Positions 10,566 through 62,550 of a stretch of 64,000 bases of DNA are shown in pieces. Source of the DNA: an uncultured Clostridia bacterium (GTDB lineage Bacteria; Bacillota; Clostridia; Christensenellales; UBA1242); assembly GCA_934747255.1 (NCBI GenBank), contig CAKVGH010000001.1, forward strand, positions 18,023-82,022, given 5' to 3'. The notes beneath the pieces are model-generated. The model searched no databases and had not been told where the DNA came from. It saw only the letters and a list, made by a program, of their open reading frames with translations. Numbering within the stretch: position 1 is the first letter of the stretch; every line of letters starts with the position of its first letter. Both the position numbers and the translations under genes were made by a program.

Positions 10566-11840
10566 TTATTGGTTTTTTCGCAATTTTTTTAACATTCTTT
10601 GATATTTTTTAATTTTTGTTATCAATTCTTCTTCAGTAATATTTTCCGATTCTGGTAAAATTTCTTGATTAATATTGTATGTTTGATTGATAAACGAAAA
10701 AGCATTTGAAACCATTTTAGCACTATTTATTTTGCTCTTAAAATCAAGATGCGAATATATATTTGCCGTAGTCGAAAAATTTGAATGTCCTAACCATTCT
10801 TGAATTTGCTTCATTGACACATTTTGTGCCACCATTATACTAGCGCAACTGTGTCTTAAATCATGAAATCGTATATGCTTCAAATTATACTTTTTTTGTA
10901 TATCGTTAAATCCATGTGTCAACCTGCTTGGCGTAATTAAATTGCCCATATTGTCCACACACACATACTCATTGTCAAAATTGTTATACTCATTTCCAAG
11001 CATTTTTTTGTTCCGCTCTATCTCTTGTTGTTTTTCTCTTAATATTGCATCAACCTGCGTAGTCAAAGGCAGTTCTCTATTACTCGATTTTGTTTTGAGA
11101 GTGTTTGATTTGTACAAAACATATTTTCCATTTATTTTTACTTGAATCACTTTATGTTCTATTGCTATTTTTTTATTTTCAAAATCTATCGCACTCCACT
11201 TTAACCCTAAAACTTCACTTCTCCTTAAACCATAAATAGCCGAGAGCATTATCGGCAACTTTAATTCTTCATTTTTTATTAAGTTAAACAAATCTTTCAT
11301 TTCATTTACATTATAGAACTGTCTTTTGATTAGGTTTTCCTTTGGCTTTTCAACTTTATTTATTGGGTTATAAACTAGCCAATCATTTTTAACTGCGTAC
11401 TCAACACATTGATGCAATGTAACATGAATATGTCTTATCGTATTTTTACAAATACCTTCTTGCAATAAATATGAATAAAAACTTTCTATATCAATAGGCA
11501 TAAGCGCTCCCAATGCAACACCTTTTTGTTTGAAGTAAGTAAAAATTTTTTTACCGTACTTTTGATAATTTTCAAAGGTCGATGGTTCTATTTTCATTTT
11601 CTTAATTCCCAACCAAATCATGTAATAATCTCCAAAATTTTCTCCCGCCATTTTGCTATAATTTTTGTTGGAATAATTAGAATTTAATATTAAAATTTCT
11701 TCCAATTTTTGTTTTAATATATGTTCTTCCGTACCTTCTTTTAGGTGCGTGCTTACCCACTTTTGTTTTTTTCTACCGTTTTCTAAAACTGTAAACACGG
11801 CATAGTATGTGCCATTCTTTTTTTGCAAACTACCTTTCAT
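10566..11840 (-). CDS. tyrosine site-specific recombinase (phage-integrase family)
   Basis: C-terminal catalytic block HDLRHSCASIMV...WLGHSNFSTTANIYSHL (R, HxxR, Y); N-terminal KKNGTYYAVF arm-type/SAM-like region. Start refined to MKGSLQKK (GGAGAG RBS). Confidence 0.85.
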   Translation of the reverse strand: MKGSLQKKNGTYYAVFTVLENGRKKQKWVSTHLKEGTEEHILKQKLEEILILNSNYSNKNYSKMAGENFGDYYMIWLGIKKMKIEPSTFENYQKYGKKIFTYFKQKGVALGALMPIDIESFYSYLLQEGICKNTIRHIHVTLHQCVEYAVKNDWLVYNPINKVEKPKENLIKRQFYNVNEMKDLFNLIKNEELKLPIMLSAIYGLRRSEVLGLKWSAIDFENKKIAIEHKVIQVKINGKYVLYKSNTLKTKSSNRELPLTTQVDAILREKQQEIERNKKMLGNEYNNFDNEYVCVDNMGNLITPSRLTHGFNDIQKKYNLKHIRFHDLRHSCASIMVAQNVSMKQIQEWLGHSNFSTTANIYSHLDFKSKINSAKMVSNAFSFINQTYNINQEILPESENITEEELITKIKKYQRMLKKLRKNQ

Positions 11841-11853
11841 CACTACTCTCCAT

Positions 11854-12054
11854 TTACTTTTTTTGATTATTAAAATACTCAAACACATCTTGTTTTGAAA
11901 TAAACATTTTATTTCCACAAAACATTGTTTTGAATTTTTGCTTTTTAATAAAATAGTATGCTTGACTTTTCGTCAGCCCAAAAAGTTCTTGAATGTGCCA
12001 TATTCTTAAAACATCTAAATTTTCAATTATTTCAAAATAATTCATTGATTTCAC
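11854..12054 (-). CDS. excisionase-like / MerR-type HTH DNA-binding protein
   Basis: 66 aa; the ELFGLTKSQAYYFIKK HTH resembles the excisionase-family DNA-binding domain; lies immediately upstream of, and coupled to, the integrase. Confidence 0.55.
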   Translation of the reverse strand: MKSMNYFEIIENLDVLRIWHIQELFGLTKSQAYYFIKKQKFKTMFCGNKMFISKQDVFEYFNNQKK

Positions 12055-12262
12055 CTCCCCCTAAACAAAATTTTACTTCTTTTATAAAATTTTCTTTAGT
12101 GCTTAAAACAGTTTTTAATACTCAAAATGATTATTATAAACCTACTGAAATTCAACACAAATTTCAAATCAAAAAATTCAATGACTTTTTTAGAAAATTA
12201 GAAAAAAATTAGATAAAACACATAAAAAACTCACTATTTTCTGTATTTTTTAACATTTCACC

Positions 12263-12289
12263 AAAGTTTGACAGCAACAGGCGCTTGGT
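12263..12289 (+). repeat. 27-bp inverted-repeat arm A (AAAGTTTGACAGCAACAGGCGCTTGGT), candidate recombination site
   Basis: Perfect reverse complement of 13718..13744. Flanks on both sides are unrelated. Confidence 0.9.
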
Positions 12290-12849
12290 TCACAAGTTCA
12301 AAAGCAGGAACATCTCAAAATATTGATGGTACATTTGGTACAATCAGTATCAATTATGCTGATGGAGAAGCTGCAGCTTGGTCAGCTCTTGATGTAACTG
12401 GCGGAAATGAAAAAGTAATGCCTGGTTCAAGCATTCAACTTAATGGTGGTACAGTTACAAATTCTAGTAATGTTGCTTCTTACATTAAAGTAAGCATTGT
12501 AAATCTAGTTGTAAAAATTGATGATACTGAATTAACTGAAGCTCAAATCAAAGGTTTATTTGGTGTTACTGAAGTTCCTGCATTTGCAGTAACAGCTGGT
12601 GATGGCGTTGAAGCAACATCAAAAGACGGTATTTACAAAGCTAACGCTGGTAAAACTGTTACTTTGAATAATATTAACTTGACTATCGCTAAAGCAGTTA
12701 AAAATGGTACTGCTTTGTCTGCAGATGGTTTAACAGTTAAAGATGGTTCAGTAATTAACTTTACATTCCAAATCAAAGTAGCTGCAGTTCAAGCTGATTA
12801 CATTACTCTTGACGAAGCAGAAACTGTACTTAATGGTTTATTTGCTTAA
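12268..12849 (+). CDS. TasA/camelysin-like fibre subunit body (T1) lacking start context and signal peptide; possible silent cassette
   Basis: Begins at LTATGAWFTSS, the motif that follows the signal peptide in the intact paralogs. The upstream frame has no ATG/GTG/TTG after a TAA and no RBS. Family motifs VMPGSS and VAAVQADYIT. Confidence 0.5.
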   Translation: MTATGAWFTSSKAGTSQNIDGTFGTISINYADGEAAAWSALDVTGGNEKVMPGSSIQLNGGTVTNSSNVASYIKVSIVNLVVKIDDTELTEAQIKGLFGVTEVPAFAVTAGDGVEATSKDGIYKANAGKTVTLNNINLTIAKAVKNGTALSADGLTVKDGSVINFTFQIKVAAVQADYITLDEAETVLNGLFA

Positions 12850-12860
12850 TAGAACATTGT

Positions 12861-12889
12861 AAAAGAACGGTTTAATTCCGTTCTTTTTG
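12861..12889 (+). terminator. terminator after T1 (AGAACGG-tttaatt-CCGTTCT + T-run)
   Basis: Hairpin plus T-run. Near-identical copy at 13137..13165. Confidence 0.7.
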
Positions 12890-12916
12890 TGTTTTTAATA
12901 AGGAAAAGGAGAAAGT

Positions 12917-13150
12917 ATGTTTCAAAAATACAAAGACATAAACGGTGATTCAAATGTTGTTGGATACGAAATTTTAACTGACGGAATAATTATAGAGTTT
13001 GGTGGACATTGGCGTTATTATTATAATTATTCTAGTGCAGGAAAGACTAACATTGAAATTATGAAGCGATTAGCACAACAAGGTGATGGTCTAAACTCTT
13101 TTGTAAAAAGAACAAACCTACCTTATGTATGGAAAAAAAGAACGGGTTAA
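12917..13150 (+). CDS. KTSC-domain-like small protein
   Basis: 77 aa. The VVGYEILTDGIIIEFGGHWRYYYNYSSAG...MKRLAQQGDGLNSFV pattern fits the KTSC fold. Strong AAGGAGAAAGT-ATG RBS. Confidence 0.45.
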   Translation: MFQKYKDINGDSNVVGYEILTDGIIIEFGGHWRYYYNYSSAGKTNIEIMKRLAQQGDGLNSFVKRTNLPYVWKKRTG

Positions 13151-13165
13151 TTCCGTTCTTTTTTT
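13137..13165. terminator. bidirectional terminator between the KTSC gene and T2
   Basis: A-run, then AGAACGG-gttaatt-CCGTTCT, then T-run. Overlaps the KTSC stop codon. Confidence 0.7.
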
Positions 13166-13187
13166 AACTTAATTATTGTATAATCAA

Positions 13188-13754
13188 TTAAGCTGCTTTT
13201 TGAAGATTAAGTGCTGCTGCAGCGGCTGCTTCATCAGCAATGTTTTCAGCTTGGATTGCTTTAACAGAGTAAGCACCAATTGTGAAACTAGCAACTGTTT
13301 GAACTGTTGTTGAATATTCAAGGCTTGTGTTAACTTGATAGAAACCCTCTCCATCTTTTGCACCAATACCAGTACCAGTAACTGCTAAATCAATTACATC
13401 AAATTCAGCTTCAGTTGATCCATTTGTAAGTTTTCTCATTTGAACATATTTTCCGTCAGCATTTACAAGGAATACATAAGCGTCAACAGATGCAATGCTT
13501 TCATCGGCTCCTTTCAATGTTGCTGTAACTTTGAATGTTGTACCATCTGCCTTAATGTAGTCACCAGGCATAACTTCATCATTAGCTACAGTTGTTGTTT
13601 TGTCGCTACGATATGCTTGAATTGTACCAGCTGTTGCCTCCAAACTAATGTCGATCCATCTATCTCTTAATGTAAATGAACCATTATTGTTGCCCTTAGC
13701 ATCGCCACTTGCTGTATACCAAGCGCCTGTTGCTGTCAAACTTTTATTTAACAT
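13188..13754 (-). CDS. TasA/camelysin-like fibre subunit body (T2) with only a 5-codon leader (MLNKS) and no RBS or signal peptide; possible silent cassette
   Basis: MLNKS-LTATGAWYTAS..., motifs VMPGDYIKA and VKAIQAENIADEAA. No Shine-Dalgarno before the ATG. Confidence 0.5.
   Translation of the reverse strand: MLNKSLTATGAWYTASGDAKGNNNGSFTLRDRWIDISLEATAGTIQAYRSDKTTTVANDEVMPGDYIKADGTTFKVTATLKGADESIASVDAYVFLVNADGKYVQMRKLTNGSTEAEFDVIDLAVTGTGIGAKDGEGFYQVNTSLEYSTTVQTVASFTIGAYSVKAIQAENIADEAAAAAALNLQKAA
13718..13744 (-). repeat. 27-bp inverted-repeat arm B
   Basis: Plus strand reads ACCAAGCGCCTGTTGCTGTCAAACTTT, the exact reverse complement of 12263..12289. Confidence 0.9.
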
Positions 13755-13893
13755 TGTTTTAATAGATTTTTTTGCAAATTTGAAAGGCTTATATTTTATA
13801 TATCTTATTACTAAAATAAACTCTTTTTATTGGCACTAATTCTTGTATATATAATACTAGTGTGTTAAAATTCGGGCAACTAGGAGTTATTTT

Positions 13894-15402
13894 ATGGAAA
13901 ATTTAAGTGACAAAAAAATTTTGAGAATGTTTGAAGATAATTCAAATGAAATTGAAAGATTGAGAGAACGAAATAAGACAAATTTGGCAAATATTCAAGA
14001 AGCGATTTCTGAATTACAAGGTTCAACAGTCGATCCCGAGCAGGTGGAGCAACTAGAACAAGATGTCGATTCATTGGAAGAAAGTGTCAACAAAATCAAA
14101 CAACAAATTAGTATACTTCAAGGCGAAGTAGACCCAACTTATAGCGGTAAAACTTACAGTGATTATCCTGCAGGTACAATATTGCAAACTTACGATAAAT
14201 TGGAAAGACAACTTGATATGAATAGTTCCACAGTGCTTACAAGTCCTAAAATTTATTTCTGTACCGAAGCGGGTTCAACTGGAAAAATTAGATTATACAC
14301 AAAATTTAAGCAAACCGTCACAGCCACAAGTGTGTTAATGAAAGTATATCTTAATGGGACGAAGATTGCAGAAGAAACATTTGAAATCATAATGGCAAAC
14401 AATGATGTGCATATTTTAAGAAATTATTTCGACCTAAATTTTAATGCAGACAGCAAAAGTAACTATTTTTACATAACACTAGAAAGTGAAGGAAGTGCAA
14501 ATAGTAATAATATCAATCTTAATGCTTTAACTTTGGAGTTATTTGCCCCAAATGCCGACATTATCACTCGTCCTTGTCCATTTGATGCAGTCTATGCTAA
14601 CGGTAAATATTACCTAACAAACTGCATTGATGGAACCGTAAAAACTGCCGTAATTGATGAAGAAAGTTTTACAAAGGTGGAAGATATTGCTTGGACAAGC
14701 ACAAATATAGTTGCTGAAGAATGTAAAACCACTTTTTCGATGACGATTTTCAATGAAACCTACAAGCCACTTGACCCTTACTATGTGAAACATAAAAATG
14801 ACAAATATTATTTTGGAACACTCGAAAATAATATTGAGTCGTGCGAAATGACTATGGTAATGAATGCGGACCCTGTTTTTTACTCAAACGCAAATCCACA
14901 TTTTATTGTTGCGAGATTTAACAATACATATATGACTCGTGGATATTATAATTTAGCAAATAGCACAAATCAAATGGGGTTTGCTACAGGCGGTAATGTT
15001 GGTAAATTATATATAAGAGTTGGTGGGTTAAAATACAACAACATCAATTATACTACAAAAATGACGCTAGCAAGTGCTATTATTACCGCTGATGGCGAAG
15101 TTCAATTTAGACCAGCACACACAGGTAGTAACAACTTTATTAGTCTTGGCTATGGTAGTGATGTTAGTGTGATTTTAACTTCTTTTACCAACTCAAGCAT
15201 TTTCTCTGTTGCGGTTTTTGTAAAAAGGTTTGATAAAATTATTAGATATGACATAAATGTACAGTATTCGACATACACCATAACAAAAACAACAGAAATC
15301 GGTTCTTACGAAAAAGTATTCTTTATGCCTAATAATGCTTATTTTGCCATAAAAAATAACCAACTATGTTACTACAAAATTCCACTAGAAGCCCGAGAGT
15401 AA
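13894..15402 (+). CDS. coiled-coil stalk + conserved beta-rich head protein (CC1), no signal peptide; paralog of 16644..18818
   Basis: N-terminal heptad region of about 85 aa. Blocks shared with CC2: KTYSDYPAGTILQ, LELFAPNADII, YYLTNCIDGTVKTA, TTEIGSYEKVF. GGAG RBS. Confidence 0.6.
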   Translation: MENLSDKKILRMFEDNSNEIERLRERNKTNLANIQEAISELQGSTVDPEQVEQLEQDVDSLEESVNKIKQQISILQGEVDPTYSGKTYSDYPAGTILQTYDKLERQLDMNSSTVLTSPKIYFCTEAGSTGKIRLYTKFKQTVTATSVLMKVYLNGTKIAEETFEIIMANNDVHILRNYFDLNFNADSKSNYFYITLESEGSANSNNINLNALTLELFAPNADIITRPCPFDAVYANGKYYLTNCIDGTVKTAVIDEESFTKVEDIAWTSTNIVAEECKTTFSMTIFNETYKPLDPYYVKHKNDKYYFGTLENNIESCEMTMVMNADPVFYSNANPHFIVARFNNTYMTRGYYNLANSTNQMGFATGGNVGKLYIRVGGLKYNNINYTTKMTLASAIITADGEVQFRPAHTGSNNFISLGYGSDVSVILTSFTNSSIFSVAVFVKRFDKIIRYDINVQYSTYTITKTTEIGSYEKVFFMPNNAYFAIKNNQLCYYKIPLEARE

Positions 15403-15409
15403 ATATATC

Positions 15410-15443
15410 AAAAACCCTAGCATAATTTTTGCTAGGTTTTTTT
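15410..15443. terminator. terminator between CC1 and T3
   Basis: A-run, CCTAGC-loop-GCTAGG, then TTTTTTT. Confidence 0.7.
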
Positions 15444-15493
15444 AATGATTTTCAATTTTTATAAACAACTTAATATTCCAAGTGAATTTAATT

Positions 15494-16189
15494 TTACATA
15501 CTATCAAGCAATGTTTTTAATTCAGTAAAGGCTTGTGTTGCATTAATGTTGTAATATTGAATAACTGCCACCTTGTATGTATTGCCATTTGAACCGATTG
15601 TGATTAAACCATATTTAGCGCCAAGGGCAGTCAACTTTTTGCCTTGAGCAGAGTTTCCAATGCTACTAGAAGATGTTGACCCATCTAGGCTGTATGTAGT
15701 GCCGTCCACTTGAACTGTTACGACTTCGCCTTTGATAGTTAAAGCATTGGCAGAGCCTTGTTGAATCATTTGTGCTTGTTTGGTTGTTGTCACTTCCGAC
15801 AATGCGCCGTTGGAAACTACATAGTATTTATTTGTAGAATCTAATTTAATCAAATACCAAACCTTGTCCGTATCGGCTGTGCCATCAGCATCATAAGTGA
15901 TTTTAATAGAACTGCTTGTAACTTTGTCGCCCGGCATAATTATGCCCGTACCACCCTTTCGGTCAGTAATAGCTTTGCCATTGGCATCTACATGTTGATA
16001 GCCACCAACATCTATCGCAACTTTACCAAATGTTGCGAACCTAAATTCAGTGGAAGAACCAGGAGTCGATGCACTACTGCTCGAAGTAAACCAAGCACCA
16101 GTGGTGGTTAAAATAACACTCGCTAAAAACAACAATGCAACGCAAAGTATCAAAAAAGATTTATTTGCTTTTGACTTTGATGTTCTCAT
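15494..16189 (-). CDS. TasA/camelysin-like secreted fibre subunit (T3), intact signal peptide
   Basis: MRTSKSKANKSFLILCVALLFLASVILTTTGAWFTSSSS (SipW-type signal pattern), IIMPGDKV, VAVIQYYNI. Start refined to the ATG after AAGGAGAG. Confidence 0.6.
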   Translation of the reverse strand: MRTSKSKANKSFLILCVALLFLASVILTTTGAWFTSSSSASTPGSSTEFRFATFGKVAIDVGGYQHVDANGKAITDRKGGTGIIMPGDKVTSSSIKITYDADGTADTDKVWYLIKLDSTNKYYVVSNGALSEVTTTKQAQMIQQGSANALTIKGEVVTVQVDGTTYSLDGSTSSSSIGNSAQGKKLTALGAKYGLITIGSNGNTYKVAVIQYYNINATQAFTELKTLLDSM

Positions 16190-16643
16190 CTGCTCTCCTT
16201 TTTGGTTCAAGCCCAATTCCATTTGTAAATATTATATATAATATTTATTTGTTTGTAAAACAAAAATAGCCCTAAATTAAAATTTGTAAACCATTTTTTT
16301 AGTTAAATTTTACTAAATTTTTGAAACAAAAAACAGTACCATCATTTGAATACACTTGATTTTTTTTATAAAAATACAAAGTTGTCTAATATCACACGCA
16401 TAGCATTTAATAATAGTTGTATATTTATAATATAAGTGAAACACTGTATCATTTTTCACAAACCTAGTTAATTAGATTTATTAAGGATTTTTTCTTAAAA
16501 CTTTTATTCTGCTGATAGAACTTATTGTAAAAATGTTGAAATTTGCTATTTATTGAAAGTTAGTATCAATAAAAATTTTGGCACAGATTATTGAAATTCT
16601 CGGTTTTTTATGCTTAAAATGTTAAAAATTTTAGGAGAAAATT

Positions 16644-18818
16644 ATGGAAGAAACAAAACTACAACGAATTTTAATGGAACTGCGAACCGACCTTGATATG
16701 CTACTTGAAAGGTATTACAGCGGAGCAACTAAGGAGATGCAAGAGAAATTGAGTAGTCTTTCCACATTGGTTACAGAACTTCAAACAAAAGTCGACACTC
16801 TTGATAGCGACAACACCACGAACAAAACCGATATAGAAAGCATTAAGGCAGATATAGTAAATATTAAGTCGCAGTGCGAAGAATTTACCACCAATATAAC
16901 AAATCTTCAATCATCAGTAACGCAAAATACAAGCGATATTGCCGATTTAACAACTAGGGTAACCACCGCCGAAACCGACATTGACGACCTGCAAACACTC
17001 ACTGCTTCGCACACCGAAACTCTTAATGACCATTGGGACAAAATGATGATTCTATTAGCAGAAGAAATAAGTATGACAACAAAAATGTCAAACGCCGAAG
17101 AACGAATTACTGCACTAGAAAATAGTTCCGCAACTGGCAATCCGGAAATCAGCAAAGCAGATATAACAGCCCTGCAAACACAGGTTGATGCACTTGAAAC
17201 CGAAGTCGATAGCCTATCAACCAAGGTTACCACAAACACGACTAACATTGCCGATTTGACCAGCAAAGTTAATACTAATACAACTAATATTGCCACCAAC
17301 ACCGCCGACATTGCCACACTAAAAACAACCACCGAAAATATCACATCAACTGTGAGTGAACTGCAAACAACTGTTGCAACTAACACACAAAATATCAGCA
17401 ATTTGCAATCAACGATTAGCACAAACACAACAAATATTCAAACCAACGCTGATAACATTAGTACATTGCAATCGCAGGTTAATACCAACACTGAAAATAT
17501 CGCAACAACCACCGCAAACATTGCTACTAACACAGCAAATATAGCAACAAATACGACCAATATTGCAACTCTTATGGCTTTTAGAGACAGTTTACTTACA
17601 CCAACAGACCCATTTTACAACCCAAAAACTTTTAGCGATTATCCAGCAGGTACAATTTTGCAAGGCTATGCAAAGTATAGTAGAAAATATCATTTAGTAA
17701 TGAATACTCTAAAGACTCCAACTGTCTTATTTACTGCAGAACTGGGTTCAAGTGGTAAAATATTTTTTAGAATAAAATTTTCATCAACTATAACATTCAA
17801 TGGCACTATTAACTTGTACCAAAATGGCAATTTAGTTTATCAAGAACAATACTCATTTAATAACACTAGTAAAGAATTCGATTTAGAAAGAACTGTCAAC
17901 GGTTTAACATTACAACAATCGAATTTATTTTACTTGCAAATAAACTCAAATAATACTCTTCAATATACATTAACATTCTATGAGTTACAATTGCTTGCTC
18001 CCAATGCAGAAATTGTTAATTCAATTTCACCTTTTAATGTTGAGTACTTTGAAAACAAATATTACATTAGCGATTGTAGTAGTGGAATAGCAAAAATTGC
18101 CGAAATAAATGTTACTGATATGCATAATATGGATAATTTGAGTTGGACCAATACAGGAATTGAATGTTTAACATACAAAACAACATTTGATACTAAAAAA
18201 TTTGCAGATACTTACGCGCCAAATAAAAGAATCGACTATTATCAAAAAGCAGATACAAAAATATACTTTGAGAATAAGTTAAATAATGAAATATCAAATA
18301 CGCAAGAATTTTGTAACCTTGATTGGATTCCAGTCAATGAATCTACTACTTACTTTACAGCTATTTTTAAGAATAGTTTTGCACTGACAAATGCCACATA
18401 TTACTCGATGTTTAATTATGTAAATTCTACAAATAAACCATATTATTTTACAACAGGGGCTCGTTATTTACAACCTTATAATGATTTCGTTTCAAGGAGA
18501 TTTATTATATATACAAAAGAGACTGGAGAGAATTTCATAAAAAGACTAGATTCATACACTAATTTTTCTCTAAATATTGGCTTAGGAACAAATATTCATT
18601 TTTATTATAAATCATATAATGATGATATAATTTTATTTGATTGCTATATGAAATATTATGATAAAATAATTAAAAAAACAATCTCATTTACAAATACTAA
18701 TGGGTTTTCTATAACTTCTTCTACGGAAATAGGTGCTTATGAAGAATATTTTGAAGGTGCAAACAATGATTACTTTGTTGTTAGAGCAGGCAAACTAGAA
18801 TATCACAAAAAACAATAA
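16644..18818 (+). CDS. long trimeric-type coiled-coil stalk + conserved beta-rich head protein (CC2), no signal peptide
   Basis: About 300 aa of heptads including runs of TNTxNIA (the IxxNTxx pattern). The head is paralogous to CC1: KTFSDYPAGTILQ, LQLLAPNAEIV, YYISDCSSGIAKIA, STEIGAYEEYF. Confidence 0.6.
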   Translation: MEETKLQRILMELRTDLDMLLERYYSGATKEMQEKLSSLSTLVTELQTKVDTLDSDNTTNKTDIESIKADIVNIKSQCEEFTTNITNLQSSVTQNTSDIADLTTRVTTAETDIDDLQTLTASHTETLNDHWDKMMILLAEEISMTTKMSNAEERITALENSSATGNPEISKADITALQTQVDALETEVDSLSTKVTTNTTNIADLTSKVNTNTTNIATNTADIATLKTTTENITSTVSELQTTVATNTQNISNLQSTISTNTTNIQTNADNISTLQSQVNTNTENIATTTANIATNTANIATNTTNIATLMAFRDSLLTPTDPFYNPKTFSDYPAGTILQGYAKYSRKYHLVMNTLKTPTVLFTAELGSSGKIFFRIKFSSTITFNGTINLYQNGNLVYQEQYSFNNTSKEFDLERTVNGLTLQQSNLFYLQINSNNTLQYTLTFYELQLLAPNAEIVNSISPFNVEYFENKYYISDCSSGIAKIAEINVTDMHNMDNLSWTNTGIECLTYKTTFDTKKFADTYAPNKRIDYYQKADTKIYFENKLNNEISNTQEFCNLDWIPVNESTTYFTAIFKNSFALTNATYYSMFNYVNSTNKPYYFTTGARYLQPYNDFVSRRFIIYTKETGENFIKRLDSYTNFSLNIGLGTNIHFYYKSYNDDIILFDCYMKYYDKIIKKTISFTNTNGFSITSSTEIGAYEEYFEGANNDYFVVRAGKLEYHKKQ

Positions 18819-18821
18819 AAC

Positions 18822-18851
18822 AAAAAACAACTCATAAAGAGTTGTTTTTTT
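18822..18851. terminator. bidirectional terminator between CC2 and T4
   Basis: A-run, CAACTC-ataaa-GAGTTG, then TTTTTTT. Confidence 0.75.
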
Positions 18852-18876: not shown

Positions 18877-19515
18877 TTAAGCAATTACAATTGCTTCAAG
18901 CAATGGCTTTGCAGCTTCAGCTGTCAAGTTGTTAGCTTGGATTGTCTTAACTTGGATACCTTGTCCTTGGAAGTTAAGAGAGAATGTACCAGTTACATCG
19001 CCATAATTTAGGCTTGTTTTAACTGTGTATACATCGCCTGCAATATCAAATTTATCAACAGCACCTGTTACAGCACGATTACCTTCTGTAGCAAGAACGA
19101 TTGCATCGCCTGCATCAGAATATGTTACTTCTGACCAATTTGCGCCACCATCTACTGATACAATGTAGTAGAAAGCTACTTTAGAATTAGCTGTAATTGT
19201 TGCCTTTGCACCTTGTGTAAATGTTACTTTATCGCCAGGAAGTACAACATAAGCTCCTGCTTCATTTGTAGCGCAGTCTTCTGAACCTACACCTTTTGGA
19301 CTTGTTGTTACTTTAACTGTGTTAGTTGCACCTGCATTTACTGTAAGTGTCATCCAATCACTCATAACAAAGTCAACTTTTCCACCTTGGCCATCTTGTT
19401 TAGATGAACTTGTGTACCAAGCACCTGTTGCTGTCAAAATCATGCTTAAGCAAAGCAAGATGCTTAAAAGAACGATAGCAACTGTTGATTTTCTCATTTT
19501 CTTTGAGTTTACCAT
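18877..19515 (-). CDS. TasA/camelysin-like secreted fibre subunit (T4), intact RBS and signal peptide
   Basis: AAGGAGAAAAACAA-ATG; MVNSKKMRKSTVAIVLLSILLCLSMILTATGAWYTSSSK; VVLPGDKVTF; VKTIQANNLTAEAA. Confidence 0.65.
   Translation of the reverse strand: MVNSKKMRKSTVAIVLLSILLCLSMILTATGAWYTSSSKQDGQGGKVDFVMSDWMTLTVNAGATNTVKVTTSPKGVGSEDCATNEAGAYVVLPGDKVTFTQGAKATITANSKVAFYYIVSVDGGANWSEVTYSDAGDAIVLATEGNRAVTGAVDKFDIAGDVYTVKTSLNYGDVTGTFSLNFQGQGIQVKTIQANNLTAEAAKPLLEAIVIA
19405..19438 (-). repeat. third copy of the candidate crossover site, inside intact T4
   Basis: The T4 coding strand reads TTTGACAGCAACAGGtGCTTGGTaCACAAGTTCA. This matches 12267..12300 at 32 of 34 nt, and matches 22 of the last 23 nt (TTTGAC...GGT) of the 27-bp core. 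Confidence 0.85.
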
Positions 19516-19844
19516 TTTGTTTTTCTCCTTTTTTTATTTTATTTTATTTACAACCTTTCGTTATAAACATTCATAGTATAATAAACGGCAAAATTAAAGG
19601 CAAATATTTTTAACCACTTTTTCAAAATTTTTTTATTTTTTTTGTTTTTTTTGGTTTGTCGCAATTTGTCAAAGGTTTTTGGGCAAAAATGTTTTAACAT
19701 TTTTTTGATATATAATGTTTTAATCTATATAATATATATTTATATATAATAATACAGCCTTTTGAAAGTTTTTTGGGCAAAATTTTGCAAGTATCAAAAA
19801 AGACAAGGCAAAAAATTTTATTTGTGGTAAAATGTCTTAAACAA

Positions 19845-59748: not shown

Positions 59749-60930
59749 TTAAATAGTGTAAACACTTTCGTTTGAATCAATATAATAGTTATAGCCATTG
59801 GCTTTTATGTATATTTTACTTCCAGCCAAATATGTTGATTTTGGCAAAGTAATACCACAAACTTCACAACTTGTATCTATCCAAGTATTATCAATTCGTA
59901 TGGCATAAGTTTTAGCATTTGGCGTAGCGTCCCAACTTATAAAGACATTGTCGCCGTCTATTACAACTTTGATATTTGTTACACTACTTAATTTTTCTGT
60001 TTTAGTGTAAGATACCACATCTGTAAACGCACTTGTTATGTAATTGCCTGTACCTATCGCTTGTACTTTGAATGAATAAACACCCGCATTACTTACAAGA
60101 GAACTGAAATCGTAAGAATTTTTTGTTGTACTAAACTCTTGACTATTGTTAACTAAAATTTTATAGCCAGAACAATTTTTAACCGCCTTCCAAGACAAGG
60201 TTAAACTTGACTGGTCAAATCTCAAATTTGTTGGAGCGGACAAATTTAATGTTTTTTGATATGTTACAGCATTACTATATGCACTATCAAAGTAGTTTTC
60301 ACTACCAATTGCTTTTACGGCAAAACTAAAACTTGTTTTTGTCATAGTTCCAATATAGCCACTTACATCAAACGCATTTGCCGAAGTTGTAACTATGTAA
60401 TTACCGCTATCATAGACATTGTAGCCAGTAGAATTACTAACCGTTGTCCAAGTTAAATACATATCATCTATTGCCAAGTTTGGTGTTGATAGTTGATGTT
60501 TATTAACAAACTCTTGTGGCTCTGTTGATAATGAATCGCTAAAATCTTCTCCACCAATACATTTACAATAGTAGTAGTATGATTTTGCATCTACAAACAA
60601 GTCAGTTACATCAAGACTATATTTTTCATAAGGTTTTGTTTCATCGTAATCTTTTGTCAAAAATTCGGTGTATTCATAAATATCTTGTGGAGATGCTCCA
60701 TCGTAAATATAAAACGCATAGTAGGAAGCAAAAAGGTTATTGTTTGCTACTAACATTTTTTTTTCGCCGTCAAATTGTAATGCCACGGTTGGTGTTTCTA
60801 GTCTAGGTTTCGAGTCGTCCTTTTTGAAAAAAACAAAAACGCAAAGAACGGCAACAACCGTTCCCACAACTATAAAGGTAAGCAATGCTATAAGCCACCA
60901 TAGGTTTTTAGTGTCTTTTTGTTCTTCCAT
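59749..60930 (-). CDS. N-terminally membrane-anchored protein with four FN3-like repeats
   Basis: TM helix WWLIALLTFIVVGTVVAVLCVFVFF. Repeats of about 90 aa carry L(T/S)W...SGY patterns (LTWTTVSNSTGYNVYD, LSWKAVKNCSGYKILVN, ISWDATPNAKTYAIRID). The ATG lies 2 nt after the upstream stop. Confidence 0.55.
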   Translation of the reverse strand: MEEQKDTKNLWWLIALLTFIVVGTVVAVLCVFVFFKKDDSKPRLETPTVALQFDGEKKMLVANNNLFASYYAFYIYDGASPQDIYEYTEFLTKDYDETKPYEKYSLDVTDLFVDAKSYYYYCKCIGGEDFSDSLSTEPQEFVNKHQLSTPNLAIDDMYLTWTTVSNSTGYNVYDSGNYIVTTSANAFDVSGYIGTMTKTSFSFAVKAIGSENYFDSAYSNAVTYQKTLNLSAPTNLRFDQSSLTLSWKAVKNCSGYKILVNNSQEFSTTKNSYDFSSLVSNAGVYSFKVQAIGTGNYITSAFTDVVSYTKTEKLSSVTNIKVVIDGDNVFISWDATPNAKTYAIRIDNTWIDTSCEVCGITLPKSTYLAGSKIYIKANGYNYYIDSNESVYTI

Positions 60931-60932
60931 TA

Positions 60933-61676
60933 TTAACCCCAATTATTTCTAAAACTCTCTTTCCACGAAGTTGGTGCTGTTTCCCAAGTTGATTCAATCG
61001 CTTGGAAGCCACCTTCGCCTGCTTGCAAACATTCAACCATCATATGCATAGTTACTTGTTTACCTTGAAAACTATTATCTATTTTGGTACTAACTTTTAT
61101 GCTATCAGTTACTTCTACCGACTGATTAGCAAGTAATGTGCTTTTTAGATAATAATATCCATCAGCACCTTCAATCCAGTTGTTTGTCCACTCTGGGTTA
61201 GTACTATTTATTGAAAACATATTTGCGTAATAATTTTCCCCAATAGTGCTGTAAAATTTTACTCTAATAAATACTTGTGCGGTACTGCCTTCTATATCAA
61301 TACTTTTAATAACAAACTTGATTTTTAGCGAGTCACCTGGCATAACATTTTCTTTCTTCTCTGGATGCTCGTCAAACTCAATCAACTCATAGTTTGCTTG
61401 CAAATCAATGGCAATATCCATAGGTGATGTTGGTTTTGGAAATACAAATAGCAAAAGTGTGCCAGCGATAATTACTGACATTAAAATCGCAAAAATAGAC
61501 CAAATCAATTTTTTATTGCTCTTGTTGATTATTATTTCTGGATTATCAAGCAAAACATCTTCGGTCAAAATCACCTTTTGTGGCATATTATCTGGTGATT
61601 TTTGTTTTATATCTACCGATTGTGAGAGTTTACTCAAATCTGGCTTAATATCAGAAATTTTGTTATTTTCTTCCAT
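60933..61676 (-). CDS. TasA/camelysin-like domain protein with a cytoplasmic N-tail and TM anchor (T5)
   Basis: TM helix LIWSIFAILMSVIIAGTLLLFVF, NVMPGDSLKIKF, and C-terminal VECLQAGEGGFQAIESTWETAPTSW paralleling T6. GGAGG RBS. Confidence 0.5.
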   Translation of the reverse strand: MEENNKISDIKPDLSKLSQSVDIKQKSPDNMPQKVILTEDVLLDNPEIIINKSNKKLIWSIFAILMSVIIAGTLLLFVFPKPTSPMDIAIDLQANYELIEFDEHPEKKENVMPGDSLKIKFVIKSIDIEGSTAQVFIRVKFYSTIGENYYANMFSINSTNPEWTNNWIEGADGYYYLKSTLLANQSVEVTDSIKVSTKIDNSFQGKQVTMHMMVECLQAGEGGFQAIESTWETAPTSWKESFRNNWG

Positions 61677-61902
61677 AATCAACCTCCATTTAGTAATATT
61701 TTACAAAATTAGCACACATAAATCAACAATTTTTACGCCATATACTAATATTTATTATTATTATTTTAATCAATTATATAAAAATTATAAATTGTAAAAT
61801 TTTGGGTTACGACAAATTTTTTTGCTTTGAATAGTTTTGATTAAACTTCACAAACTACTTTTGATTAAGCCGAAAGGCTAAAAATAAAATAAGGAGAGAA
61901 GT

Positions 61903-62550
61903 ATGGAAAAGAAAGAACAAACAAAACCACAAGGCGAAAGAGTTCAACCAAAAGTAACCCTTAAAAGAAGAAAAAGTTCTGGTAGTACTATTGCAATCAT
62001 TGCATTGTCAATACTCCTAGGCGTTTCTGTAATCTTTGGCGTTACGGCTGCATTCTTTACCGCAAATGCTGGCGGAACTGGTAACATTACTTTGGGTAAT
62101 CCTGTAAACATCAACTTGACACAAGGTGGTGCTTCCGTTTCCTCACTAACTTTTGCTGGAACAGCAATGCCGGGAACTGTTTATGACCAAGTTATTGGTG
62201 TAAGCGTTCCTACAGATTCTTCTGACTGTGTTGTTAGAGGAAAATTAACTATCGCTGACGCCGATGGTGCTACTACACCAGTCGAAGCCGTTACAAACGC
62301 TTCTTGGGCTAAAGGTGACGATGATTACTATTACTACAATGGTATTCTTAAATCAAATGACACTGCTGGTTTCGTAACATCACTCACTGTTCCAAAATCA
62401 CTAACTAACACTGCTGCAAACAAGGTTTACACTATTTCAGTTCAAATAGAAGCAATCCAATTTGCAAATGGTGCTGCTAGCGAAGTTTGGACAACTGCTC
62501 CAAGTGCTTGGACAACTGCTTATGGTTCAGGTACAGTATCAGGAAGCTAA
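61903..62550 (+). CDS. TasA/camelysin-like secreted fibre subunit (T6)
   Basis: Signal region IAIIALSILLGVSVIFGVTAAFFTANAGG, AMPGTVYDQ, VQIEAIQFANGAASEVWTTAPSAW. AAGGAGAGAAGT-ATG RBS. Confidence 0.6.
   Translation: MEKKEQTKPQGERVQPKVTLKRRKSSGSTIAIIALSILLGVSVIFGVTAAFFTANAGGTGNITLGNPVNINLTQGGASVSSLTFAGTAMPGTVYDQVIGVSVPTDSSDCVVRGKLTIADADGATTPVEAVTNASWAKGDDDYYYYNGILKSNDTAGFVTSLTVPKSLTNTAANKVYTISVQIEAIQFANGAASEVWTTAPSAWTTAYGSGTVSGS

Follow-up and report, generated by a model that had tools for sequence, protein, structure and literature searches.

A probable chromosomal multiple-inversion system for a secreted protein in an uncultured gut Clostridia bacterium

Gene content of the locus

The window analysed here, 64,000 nucleotides of an uncultured Clostridia bacterium (assembly GCA_934747255.1, contig CAKVGH010000001.1, positions 18,023 to 82,022), carries a perfect inverted repeat at the 5′ ends of two convergent, leaderless open reading frames (ORFs), T1 and T2, near a tyrosine recombinase gene. 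An initial annotation, made from the letters of the window, took the segment between the repeats for an invertible one bearing TasA-like cassettes. We examined this locus in the window and in public assemblies. The window is chromosomal DNA of low GC content (31%) from a spore-forming host; its genes include SpoIIE, GerA-type germination genes, SecA, ArgS, NrdD, ComEC and HolA, and its SecA shares 81% identity with that of a 'Clostridiales bacterium' metagenome-assembled genome. All related contigs came from human-gut metagenomes. Leftward from the repeat lie an HTH_17 gene, the recombinase gene, a 112-codon ORF, tRNA-His and tRNA-Ser; rightward lie a 502-aa coiled-coil protein gene, the paralog p242, a 724-aa coiled-coil protein gene, the paralog p212 and then comEC. 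Between T1 and T2 lie a gene of 77 codons and a terminator hairpin present in two copies. An Rfam scan of the window returned tRNAs and an L10 leader, and nothing else. The genes of the locus are as follows.

10566-11840, minus strand: tyrosine recombinase, 424 aa (Pfam PF00589, E=1.1e-26; PF13102)
11854-12045, minus strand: HTH_17 excisionase-type gene, 63 aa (Pfam PF12728, E=4.7e-05)
12268-12849, plus strand: T1 ORF, convergent with T2
12917-13150, plus strand: orf77, a small KTSC-like gene between T1 and T2 that flips with the cassettes
13188-13754, minus strand: T2 ORF, convergent with T1
13894-18818, both strands: passenger block (502-aa gene, p242, 724-aa gene)
13894-15402, plus strand: 502-aa coiled-coil protein, within the passenger block
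15494-16222, minus strand: p242, an intact, fixed paralog with its own signal peptide
16644-18818, plus strand: 724-aa coiled-coil protein, within the passenger block
18877-19515, minus strand: p212, an intact paralog adjoining comEC and the expressed gene in the window

Three copies of an intragenic site

Both copies of the annotated 27-bp repeat were located: AAAGTTTGACAGCAACAGGCGCTTGGT (27 nt) stands at 12263-12289 on the plus strand, and its exact reverse complement at 13718-13744. The inverted repeat reaches 32 nt at 94% identity. Searching the window with up to 3 mismatches revealed no further copy of the 27-mer, and 100 shuffles gave zero; the 27-bp inverted repeat is no chance match. 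It encodes (K/Q)S-LTATGAW, and the same junction trails the hydrophobic signal region in p242 and p212, intact paralogs in which a lysine-rich stretch and then this hydrophobic region precede the junction peptide. The repeat is thus rightly described as the (K)SLTATGAW junction that follows a signal peptide. The mature parts of T1 and T2 diverge directly past the repeat, as also noted initially, and are 32.5% identical; T1, T2 and the paralogs are 25-33% identical to one another after it.

While the identity between T1 and T2 stood, its restriction to these two ORFs did not. The 5′ part of p212 holds a third site, TTGACAGCAACAGGtGCTTGGT (19416-19437, minus strand), 21/22 identical to the repeat core. 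Our 27-mer search at 3 mismatches had missed it because the five bases 5′ of the core differ. The locus therefore has three sites in mixed orientation (one plus, two minus), identical at 21-22 of 22 positions.

12263-12289, plus strand: site a (IR-L of the initial annotation), core TTGACAGCAACAGGCGCTTGGT at 12268-12289; from repeat search and alignment
13718-13744, minus strand: site b (IR-R of the initial annotation), core at 13718-13739; from repeat search and alignment
19416-19437, minus strand: site c, TTGACAGCAACAGGTGCTTGGT, with one C-to-T change relative to sites a and b

The 22-bp consensus, TTGACAGCAACAGG[C/T]GCTTGGT, codes LTATGAW. In p242 the counterpart codes LTTTGAW and differs from the core at 6/22 nt, so that site identity is held at the DNA level and is not forced by the protein, in agreement with the initial interpretation. 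We considered p242 as a fourth site and rejected it on account of these 6/22 mismatches and its constant collinearity with its neighbours. A scan of GTDB species genomes for the site returned a chance match in Vitreoscilla only, so a genome of this organism with the site is apparently absent from that set.

One natural variant lacks a site. In two contigs (L003 and L005; protein P0008, 181 aa), a deletion of 21 bp, GACAGCAACAGGCGCTTGGTA, with an ACAGCAA microhomology on either side, takes out site b (window 13718-13744), and the protein reads MLNKS-FTASG. Such a deletion would lock T2 at the RF1 dock and leave a two-site switch (a and c).

Docks and cassettes

Each site marks the boundary between a 5′ flank, which we call a dock, and a cassette consisting of a mature domain with its own terminator.

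12046-12267, plus strand: LF, left dock; no start codon and no ribosome-binding site (RBS) in the cassette frame
13740-13893, minus strand: RF1, right dock; ATG-TTA-AAT-AAA-AGT (MLNKS)
19438-19603, minus strand: EXP, expression dock; promoter-like hexamers, RBS, ATG and signal peptide; adjoins comEC
12290-12849, plus strand: cassette T1m, mature domain including stop codon; found joined to all three docks
13188-13717, minus strand: cassette T2m, mature domain; found joined to LF, RF1 and EXP
18877-19415, minus strand: cassette 212m, mature domain of p212; also found detached from its signal peptide, on LF

The absence of an RBS and of a signal region from both T1 and T2, reported initially, was borne out: T1 has no upstream start and T2 has MLNKS only. 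The T1 frame opens at 12226, after a TAA, and contains no ATG, GTG or TTG ahead of the TTG at 12268, which itself lies within the repeat. RF1 has neither a hydrophobic signal region nor a Shine-Dalgarno sequence, and one intergenic region serves both this dock and the divergent 502-aa gene; RF1 probably represents a decayed 5′ end turned parking site. An equivalent exists in another species (L027), where a dock reading MRHKKGSRKL plus LTATGAW adjoins a 507-aa homologue of the 502-aa protein.

At EXP, by contrast with the other two docks, we found promoter-like hexamers (TTGCCT-17-TATACT, 19603-19575), an RBS (AAGGAG, 19530-19525) nine bases ahead of the ATG at 19515, and a signal peptide of 26 codons, MVNSKKMRKSTVAIVLLSILLCLSMI, at 19515-19438. 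Only this dock is predicted to combine promoter-like hexamers, RBS, start and export signal. The same 26 residues are joined in public assemblies to 212m (P0011), T2m (P0006, P0010) and T1m (P0004). Judged from these features, the 5′ end of p212 is the sole predicted expression site, and LF and RF1 would be unable to yield a secreted protein.

At about 12190-12218, LF also has a set of three TTAGAAAA-type repeats, candidates for arm or accessory binding sites. The motif is not enriched to a statistically unusual degree in this AT-rich window; we retained the repeats as candidates because they are conserved across species. The motif is also kept at L108/L109 and L026, in the LF docks, and at L027, in the RF1-like dock; in the LF-type docks of these loci, two to four copies of TTAGAAAA lie 45-90 nt away from the core.

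Terminator hairpins follow T1m (12861-12887), T2m (13135-13163) and 212m (18822-18850). The T1 and T2 terminators are the two copies, 96% identical, of a 28-nt palindrome, AAAAGAACGG-TTAATT-CCGTTCTTTT, at 12861-12888 and 13136-13163 on either side of orf77. Several public contigs end at 12870, for which this palindromic repeat is the probable reason.

All four arrangements in public assemblies

We took a census of 30 junctions on 21 public contigs produced by three assemblers. The contigs were found by exact-protein look-up of the locus proteins and by a homology search with T1, and the possible arrangements were enumerated by inverting between oppositely oriented sites. This enumeration gave exactly four arrangements, two of which express 212m, one T2m and one T1m. 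All four were found in independent assemblies, the scope of the comparison being between samples and strains. Arrangement A is that of the window and of L001, L002 and L004; B is present in L009 and L115; C in L013, L014 and L018-L020; and D in L023 with L011, from one sample.

Arrangement B provided direct evidence for the flip of the annotated segment. In L009, from a Hadza gut metagenome, window positions 12849-13744 continue via the repeat into the reverse complement of 12289-10513, so that the T2 end adjoins xis-int (the HTH_17 and recombinase genes) in the inverted layout. L115, a contig recorded in three samples, shows the same junction and, in addition, orf77 and T1 inverted; orf77 is accordingly inverted relative to the recombinase. 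The homology search with T1 recovered a 198-aa protein made of MLNKS and T1, encoded on nine contigs. Both orientations of 12290-13717 thus occur in public assemblies, and the initial proposal of an invertible segment of the shufflon or hsdS type was upheld by the T2-LF junctions of L009 and L115 and the nine T1-MLNKS contigs.

The two-repeat segment does flip, as proposed, but it is not the whole system. The order in L013-L020 is the reverse complement of 19421-13718, followed by 12263-13740 and then by 19411 onward; a third site is therefore needed within p212. The passenger block flips whole with its internal order unchanged, being collinear but reversed in L013-L019. Flipping 12290-13717 alone never gives a secretable protein: the expression site lies 5.7 kb off, in the 5′ end of p212, as seen from P0004, P0006 and the contigs L013-L020, L023 and L024. 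In L023 the signal peptide is joined to T1, and in L024 int-xis-LF is joined to 212m (P0013, 186 aa).

Eight of the nine possible dock-cassette pairs were seen. Lengths of the chimeric proteins were taken from 90%-identity protein clusters.

EXP dock (MVNSKKMRKSTVAIVLLSILLCLSMI): with T1m, 219 aa; with T2m, 209 aa; with 212m, 212 aa
LF dock (start is the TTG in the site): with T1m, 193 aa; with T2m, 183 aa; with 212m, 186 aa
RF1 dock (MLNKS): with T1m, 198 aa; with T2m, 188 aa; with 212m, not seen

The missing pair, RF1-212m, is unreachable by inversion because RF1 and 212m are opposite ends of one segment. This pattern is as expected of conservative inversion and hard to obtain by assembly error. 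Each of the three cassettes was found in frame with the expression site (P0011, P0006/P0010 and P0004), and junction variants of T1 and T2 on EXP, LF and RF1 were all found.

The junctions also delimit the exchange. In 30/30 the breakpoint lay within the 22-nt core; in 30/30 the bases 5′ of the core (AAAGT; GATT at EXP) travelled with the dock; and in 30/30 core position 15 travelled with the cassette, being C in T1m and T2m and T in 212m. Strand exchange is therefore placed within TTGACAGCAACAGG, the first 14 nt. The site is asymmetric, with a conserved cassette side and a variable dock side.

Outside the junction, contigs in arrangements A, B and D are 99.9-100% identical to the window (L002 and L004, in A, 100%; L009, in B, with one mismatch in 2.6 kb). 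The occurrence of A, B and D on near-identical backgrounds indicates recent flips within one lineage.

Two further observations concern individual strains. The public protein P0021 (217 aa) has the window's exact MVNSKKMRKSTVAIVLLSILLCLSMI-LTATGAW with a mature domain unlike T1, T2 and 212m, and the cassette repertoire therefore varies among close strains. In L020 (2280-3095), the comEC gene beside the expression dock is broken after about 107 codons and followed on the other strand by a 271-aa prepilin-type (N_methyl) gene; the break reflects a strain-specific insertion or else chimerism of the contig.

The recombinase and the excisionase-like gene

As the initial annotation had it, a tyrosine recombinase (Pfam Phage_integrase, E=1e-26) is encoded about 400 bp away: the gene lies some 420 bp left of site a, with the HTH_17 gene in between. 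It matches the PHROG integrase family phrog_1 (E=5e-61), and its product combines an N-terminal arm-binding-like/SAM-like part with a catalytic domain in which all catalytic motifs are present (R...HxxR...H...Y: GLRRSE, HDLRHS, LGHS, NIYSHL). Gene callers give 424 aa, and the ORF could be extended to a GTG at 11918. We presume it to be the invertase.

The HTH_17 gene lies directly upstream of the recombinase in one operon and is called as 63 aa in all contigs. Its Pfam match, at 24 bits, is under the 27-bit cut-off. The gene order, HTH_17 then Int, is common to mobile-element relatives (L110-L114), and the protein is a candidate directionality or accessory factor. A tRNA-His gene lies 0.8 kb past the integrase. 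We considered a tRNA-bounded mobile element and rejected it: no att-like direct repeat links the tRNA-Ser/His region with the rest of the window, and no direct repeats of at least 12 nt from the tRNA-His/tRNA-Ser region that could bound an element were found.

Conservation in relatives

Relatives of the recombinase were found at 98, 80, 74 and 57% identity. At L108, where the recombinase is 80% identical, a cassette with an LF-type dock diverges from xis-int, a signal-peptide dock stands directly after int, and xis-int itself is flanked by the two sites, which are inverted. Each reads TTAACAGCAACAGG[C/T]GCTTGGT, with G3 changed to A. The presence of the same change at both sites indicates that sites change together per genome, as recombination partners must. 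This form of the site is also present in leaderless cassettes of two other metagenomes (L026 and L027), and one of these cassettes adjoins the 507-aa homologue of the 502-aa gene.

More distant relatives share about 50% identity and belong, as integrases, to mobilisable elements that bear MobL; an HTH_17 gene precedes them. In L110-L114 (about 51% identity) the integrase is at the end of such an element (MobL relaxase, HTH_17, Int), accompanied by a defence island with Piwi/pAgo-like, DpnII-MboI, EcoRI methylase and GmrSD/HNH genes; the DNA past the integrase differs between contigs, and one source assigns a protein of this type to Candidatus Caccovivens faecavium. Scanning JGI metagenomes with the recombinase listed 80 loci at 43% identity or less, none with a TGAW cassette; we rejected them as kin systems, as they are unrelated mobile elements.

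The coiled-coil genes of the passenger block recur as well. The 502- and 724-aa proteins are paralogs with an N-terminal coiled coil and a common C-terminal domain of about 400 aa, for which no family match was found, and each gene diverges from a partner gene of the cassette family. The same pairing occurs in other species (L025, L027 and L108), with homologues of 507, 565, 593 and 617 aa, and so hints at a functional partnership. TNTxNIA-type repeats are present in the 724-aa protein, whose gene differs in length by 42 bp between strains (710 versus 724 aa). The product of orf77 matches PHROG phrog_17428 (E=1e-15) and phrog_24656, the latter standing for part of a virion structural protein.

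Proposed mechanism and alternative explanations

Taken together, these results make it highly probable that the locus varies a secreted, distantly camelysin/TasA-like protein, antigenically or functionally, through a chromosomal multiple-inversion system (shufflon). The recombinase, as catalyst, would invert DNA between oppositely oriented sites, possibly assisted by the excisionase-like HTH protein, with strand exchange taking place in the core's first 14 nt. Two flips would be possible from the arrangement in the window, one of the 1.4-kb T1-orf77-T2 segment and one of the 7.1-kb span from site a to site c. LF and RF1 would store silent cassettes, EXP alone supplying expression and the signal peptide, and switching would occur at appreciable frequency within a clone.

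Several observations weigh against this interpretation. The window's own lineage is mostly in state A, and state C prevails in another, whose identity to the window is about 98.5%; such lineage-bound states may mean that switching is slow or that one arrangement is selected. Among the assemblies, no single sample had two conflicting junction contigs. The sole sign of coexistence within a clone or sample is a hint of mixed populations in contigs that stop at a site (L010 ends at 13716 and L006, from the same sample, starts at 13750; L013 ends at 19421). No cassettes lie near the recombinase relatives of about 50% identity (L110-L114), and the integrase near tRNA-His could be a remnant with a merely positional link to the inversions. 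Our promoter scan was overall no better than on shuffled sequence. No SipW-like signal peptidase was recognised among the translations of the window ORFs, most of which were inspected without a profile search. Finally, we infer the secretion of the fused proteins, their processing at the junction and the role of the protein.

Three other explanations were weighed. The alternative junctions could be assembly chimeras through the short repeat, with no real inversion, given that inverted repeats are known to confuse assemblers and that some contigs are short or thinly covered (coverage of 1.7 for L009; 745 bp for L023). We give this almost no credence: at 22-27 bp the repeat is far below the final k-mers (MEGAHIT k141, metaSPAdes 55 or more), over 15 samples and three assemblers yield the same junctions, long contigs such as L013 (38 kb) and L014 hold two rearranged junctions each, only topologically allowed combinations appear, and the C/T marker is consistent at 30/30 junctions. 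It is very improbable, too, that the locus is a two-state switch of 12290-13717 in which leaderless T1 and T2 are translated alone from the MLNKS dock as expression site. Although that dock has an ATG and weak promoter-like hexamers, and a similar short-leader dock stands beside the 502-like gene in another species (L027), it lacks a Shine-Dalgarno sequence and a signal region, whereas about 100 family members all have a nearly invariant signal peptide. Moreover, both cassettes are found in nature fused to the p212 signal peptide as complete secretory precursors, and these fusions explain why the site is positioned at the junction between signal peptide and mature domain.

RecA-dependent recombination or gene conversion between paralog 5′ ends, producing rare events fixed in strains beside an integrase that is an unrelated relic, would account for the partial agreement of arrangement with strain lineage, and is in keeping with the mobile-element kin of the integrase and the tRNA-His gene 0.8 kb past it. 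However, a 22-bp stretch that contains an internal mismatch is no longer than what RecA needs to work efficiently, and p242, despite its flanking signal-peptide homology, never recombines. The unit of int, xis and LF dock stays by cassettes in L108 despite a changed layout, and there all copies of the site have altered their sequence in concert. Furthermore, states A, B and D are found on essentially identical backgrounds, and the window showed no att-type direct repeat of the tRNA end. We therefore regard this explanation as improbable and retain that of a recombinase-driven shufflon.

A more far-reaching version of the shufflon hypothesis, which we consider doubtful, is that int-xis could be a domesticated mobilisable-element module whose arm-type sites (TTAGAAAA) and cofactor would provide regulated switching, the invariant signal-peptide/LTATGAW DNA acting as a portable handle for cassette capture. 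If so, int-xis switching would be directional or regulated and not purely random, and cassettes from other strains, in a family with more than 100 very divergent mature domains sharing the handle, could be plugged into the expression site. This would amount to a family-wide cassette-capture system for surface-fibre subunits of gut Clostridia.

The secreted protein family

An exhaustive HMMER search collected 115 clusters (50% identity level, E <= 0.001) of related proteins. The first 35 residues of the family are near-invariant, MV(N/K)SKKMSKSxxAVIVLxxLLVLSxxLxxTGAWFT, and about 100 members have a nearly invariant signal peptide. By contrast, members share 12-36% identity with the 212m cassette over its length (92% for the strain variant P0013), with conserved PGD and (A/T)(I/V)Q..N motifs. 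On this small family of about 115 clusters, notable for its unusually conserved signal peptide, phage or host immunity probably exerts strong pressure to diversify.

The designation of the cassettes as TasA-like is a defensible but weak one. Some family members match PF12389, Peptidase_M73 (camelysin/TasA), namely 9 of 43 aligned; the best, P0061 (29.2 bits against a cut-off of 22.5, residues 10-111), is the only one above the cut-off. The window's own T1, T2, p212 and p242 have no Pfam or NCBIfam match. Profile comparison with an approximate Bacillus subtilis TasA sequence gave a probability of only 4.6%. Two AlphaFold models were mostly beta-strand with a mean predicted local distance difference test (pLDDT) score of 69; Foldseek comparison of both with the PDB gave nothing at E < 0.04, with TasA not among the matches, and a sequence-profile search of the PDB gave weak sialidase matches only. 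A distant relationship to TasA is thus weakly suggested by sequence, and the cassette proteins may serve as fibre or biofilm subunits.

A second cluster of related secreted-protein genes lies in the window at 59749-62550. One encodes a 215-aa protein (...GVTAAFFTANAGG) with a weak match to the BsaA/SipW-dependent family TIGR04090 (E=3.6e-4), and another a 249-aa protein with a VMPGD motif; a gene for a 397-aa membrane-anchored protein is there as well. This cluster contains no copy of the recombination site.

Comparison with known inversion systems

Our literature searches returned no description of this system and none that joins camelysin with a shufflon; those on TasA/SipW plus inversion found nothing relevant. 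Programmed inversion in the gut microbiome has been documented mostly for Bacteroidales promoters and for specificity genes of restriction-modification systems. To our knowledge, few cases are on record in which uncultured, spore-forming Clostridia exchange the entire body of a secreted protein. In short-read assemblies and gene calls, cassettes of this kind will routinely be mislabelled as 'leaderless' or truncated genes, and the pair of recombinase and compact 22-bp site is a candidate tool.

In Mycoplasma pulmonis, the vsa locus offers a close parallel. As described in one account (PMC2268961, citing Bhugra 1995, Shen 2000 and Sitaraman 2002), a single expression site carries the 5′ coding region with its promoter and RBS, silent genes are devoid of 5′ ends, interwoven inversions occur at a short intragenic site, and the HvsR tyrosine recombinase is encoded beside the locus. 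Both systems thus have one expression site, silent copies without 5′ ends, inversions at an intragenic site and an adjacent tyrosine recombinase. They differ in the constant part, 26 codons of signal peptide here as against 714 nt in vsa, and in the cargo, which is Sec-type and distantly camelysin/TasA-like here and a lipoprotein with tandem repeats there. The enzyme is of the phage/IME-integrase type (IME, integrative and mobilisable element), with an arm-binding-like N-terminus and an Xis-like partner, whereas that of vsa is Xer-like. Unlike vsa, moreover, the present locus belongs to a spore-forming gut Clostridia bacterium and has three cassettes and an extra dock with a vestigial start codon.

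In the R64/IncI shufflon (Rci, sfx, pilV), as probably here, a tyrosine recombinase catalyses multiple inversion; the N-terminal part of a surface-filament protein stays constant there, and alternative C-terminal segments are joined to it. Rci recognises asymmetric sfx sites, according to PMC11852207. The sites are likewise asymmetric at our locus, where the cassette side is conserved and exchange falls in the dock-proximal 14 nt. R64 is plasmid-borne and exchanges a C-terminal tip among seven sites, whereas this locus is chromosomal and swaps the whole mature protein using three.

The hsdS shufflons, e.g., ivr/SpnD39III of Streptococcus pneumoniae, place a complete gene beside promoterless partial genes, with intragenic inverted repeats, an adjacent tyrosine recombinase and several arrangements (PMC4948785 and PMC7672463). 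One complete expressed gene, partial genes, intragenic repeats and a tyrosine recombinase are features of the Clostridia locus as well; at hsdS loci, however, half-domains of a cytoplasmic specificity subunit are shuffled, and here whole secreted mature domains are exchanged at the signal-peptide junction. The Moraxella pilin genes (tfpQ/tfpI, Piv) and the phage Mu G and P1 C segments join, by inversion, a fixed 5′ part to one of two 3′ parts in the gene for a surface or fibre protein. These are two-state systems with a Piv/transposase-like enzyme or a serine invertase, in contrast to the tyrosine recombinase, three cassettes and four arrangements described here. The type of mechanism is therefore a known one, and what is new is the host group and the protein family.

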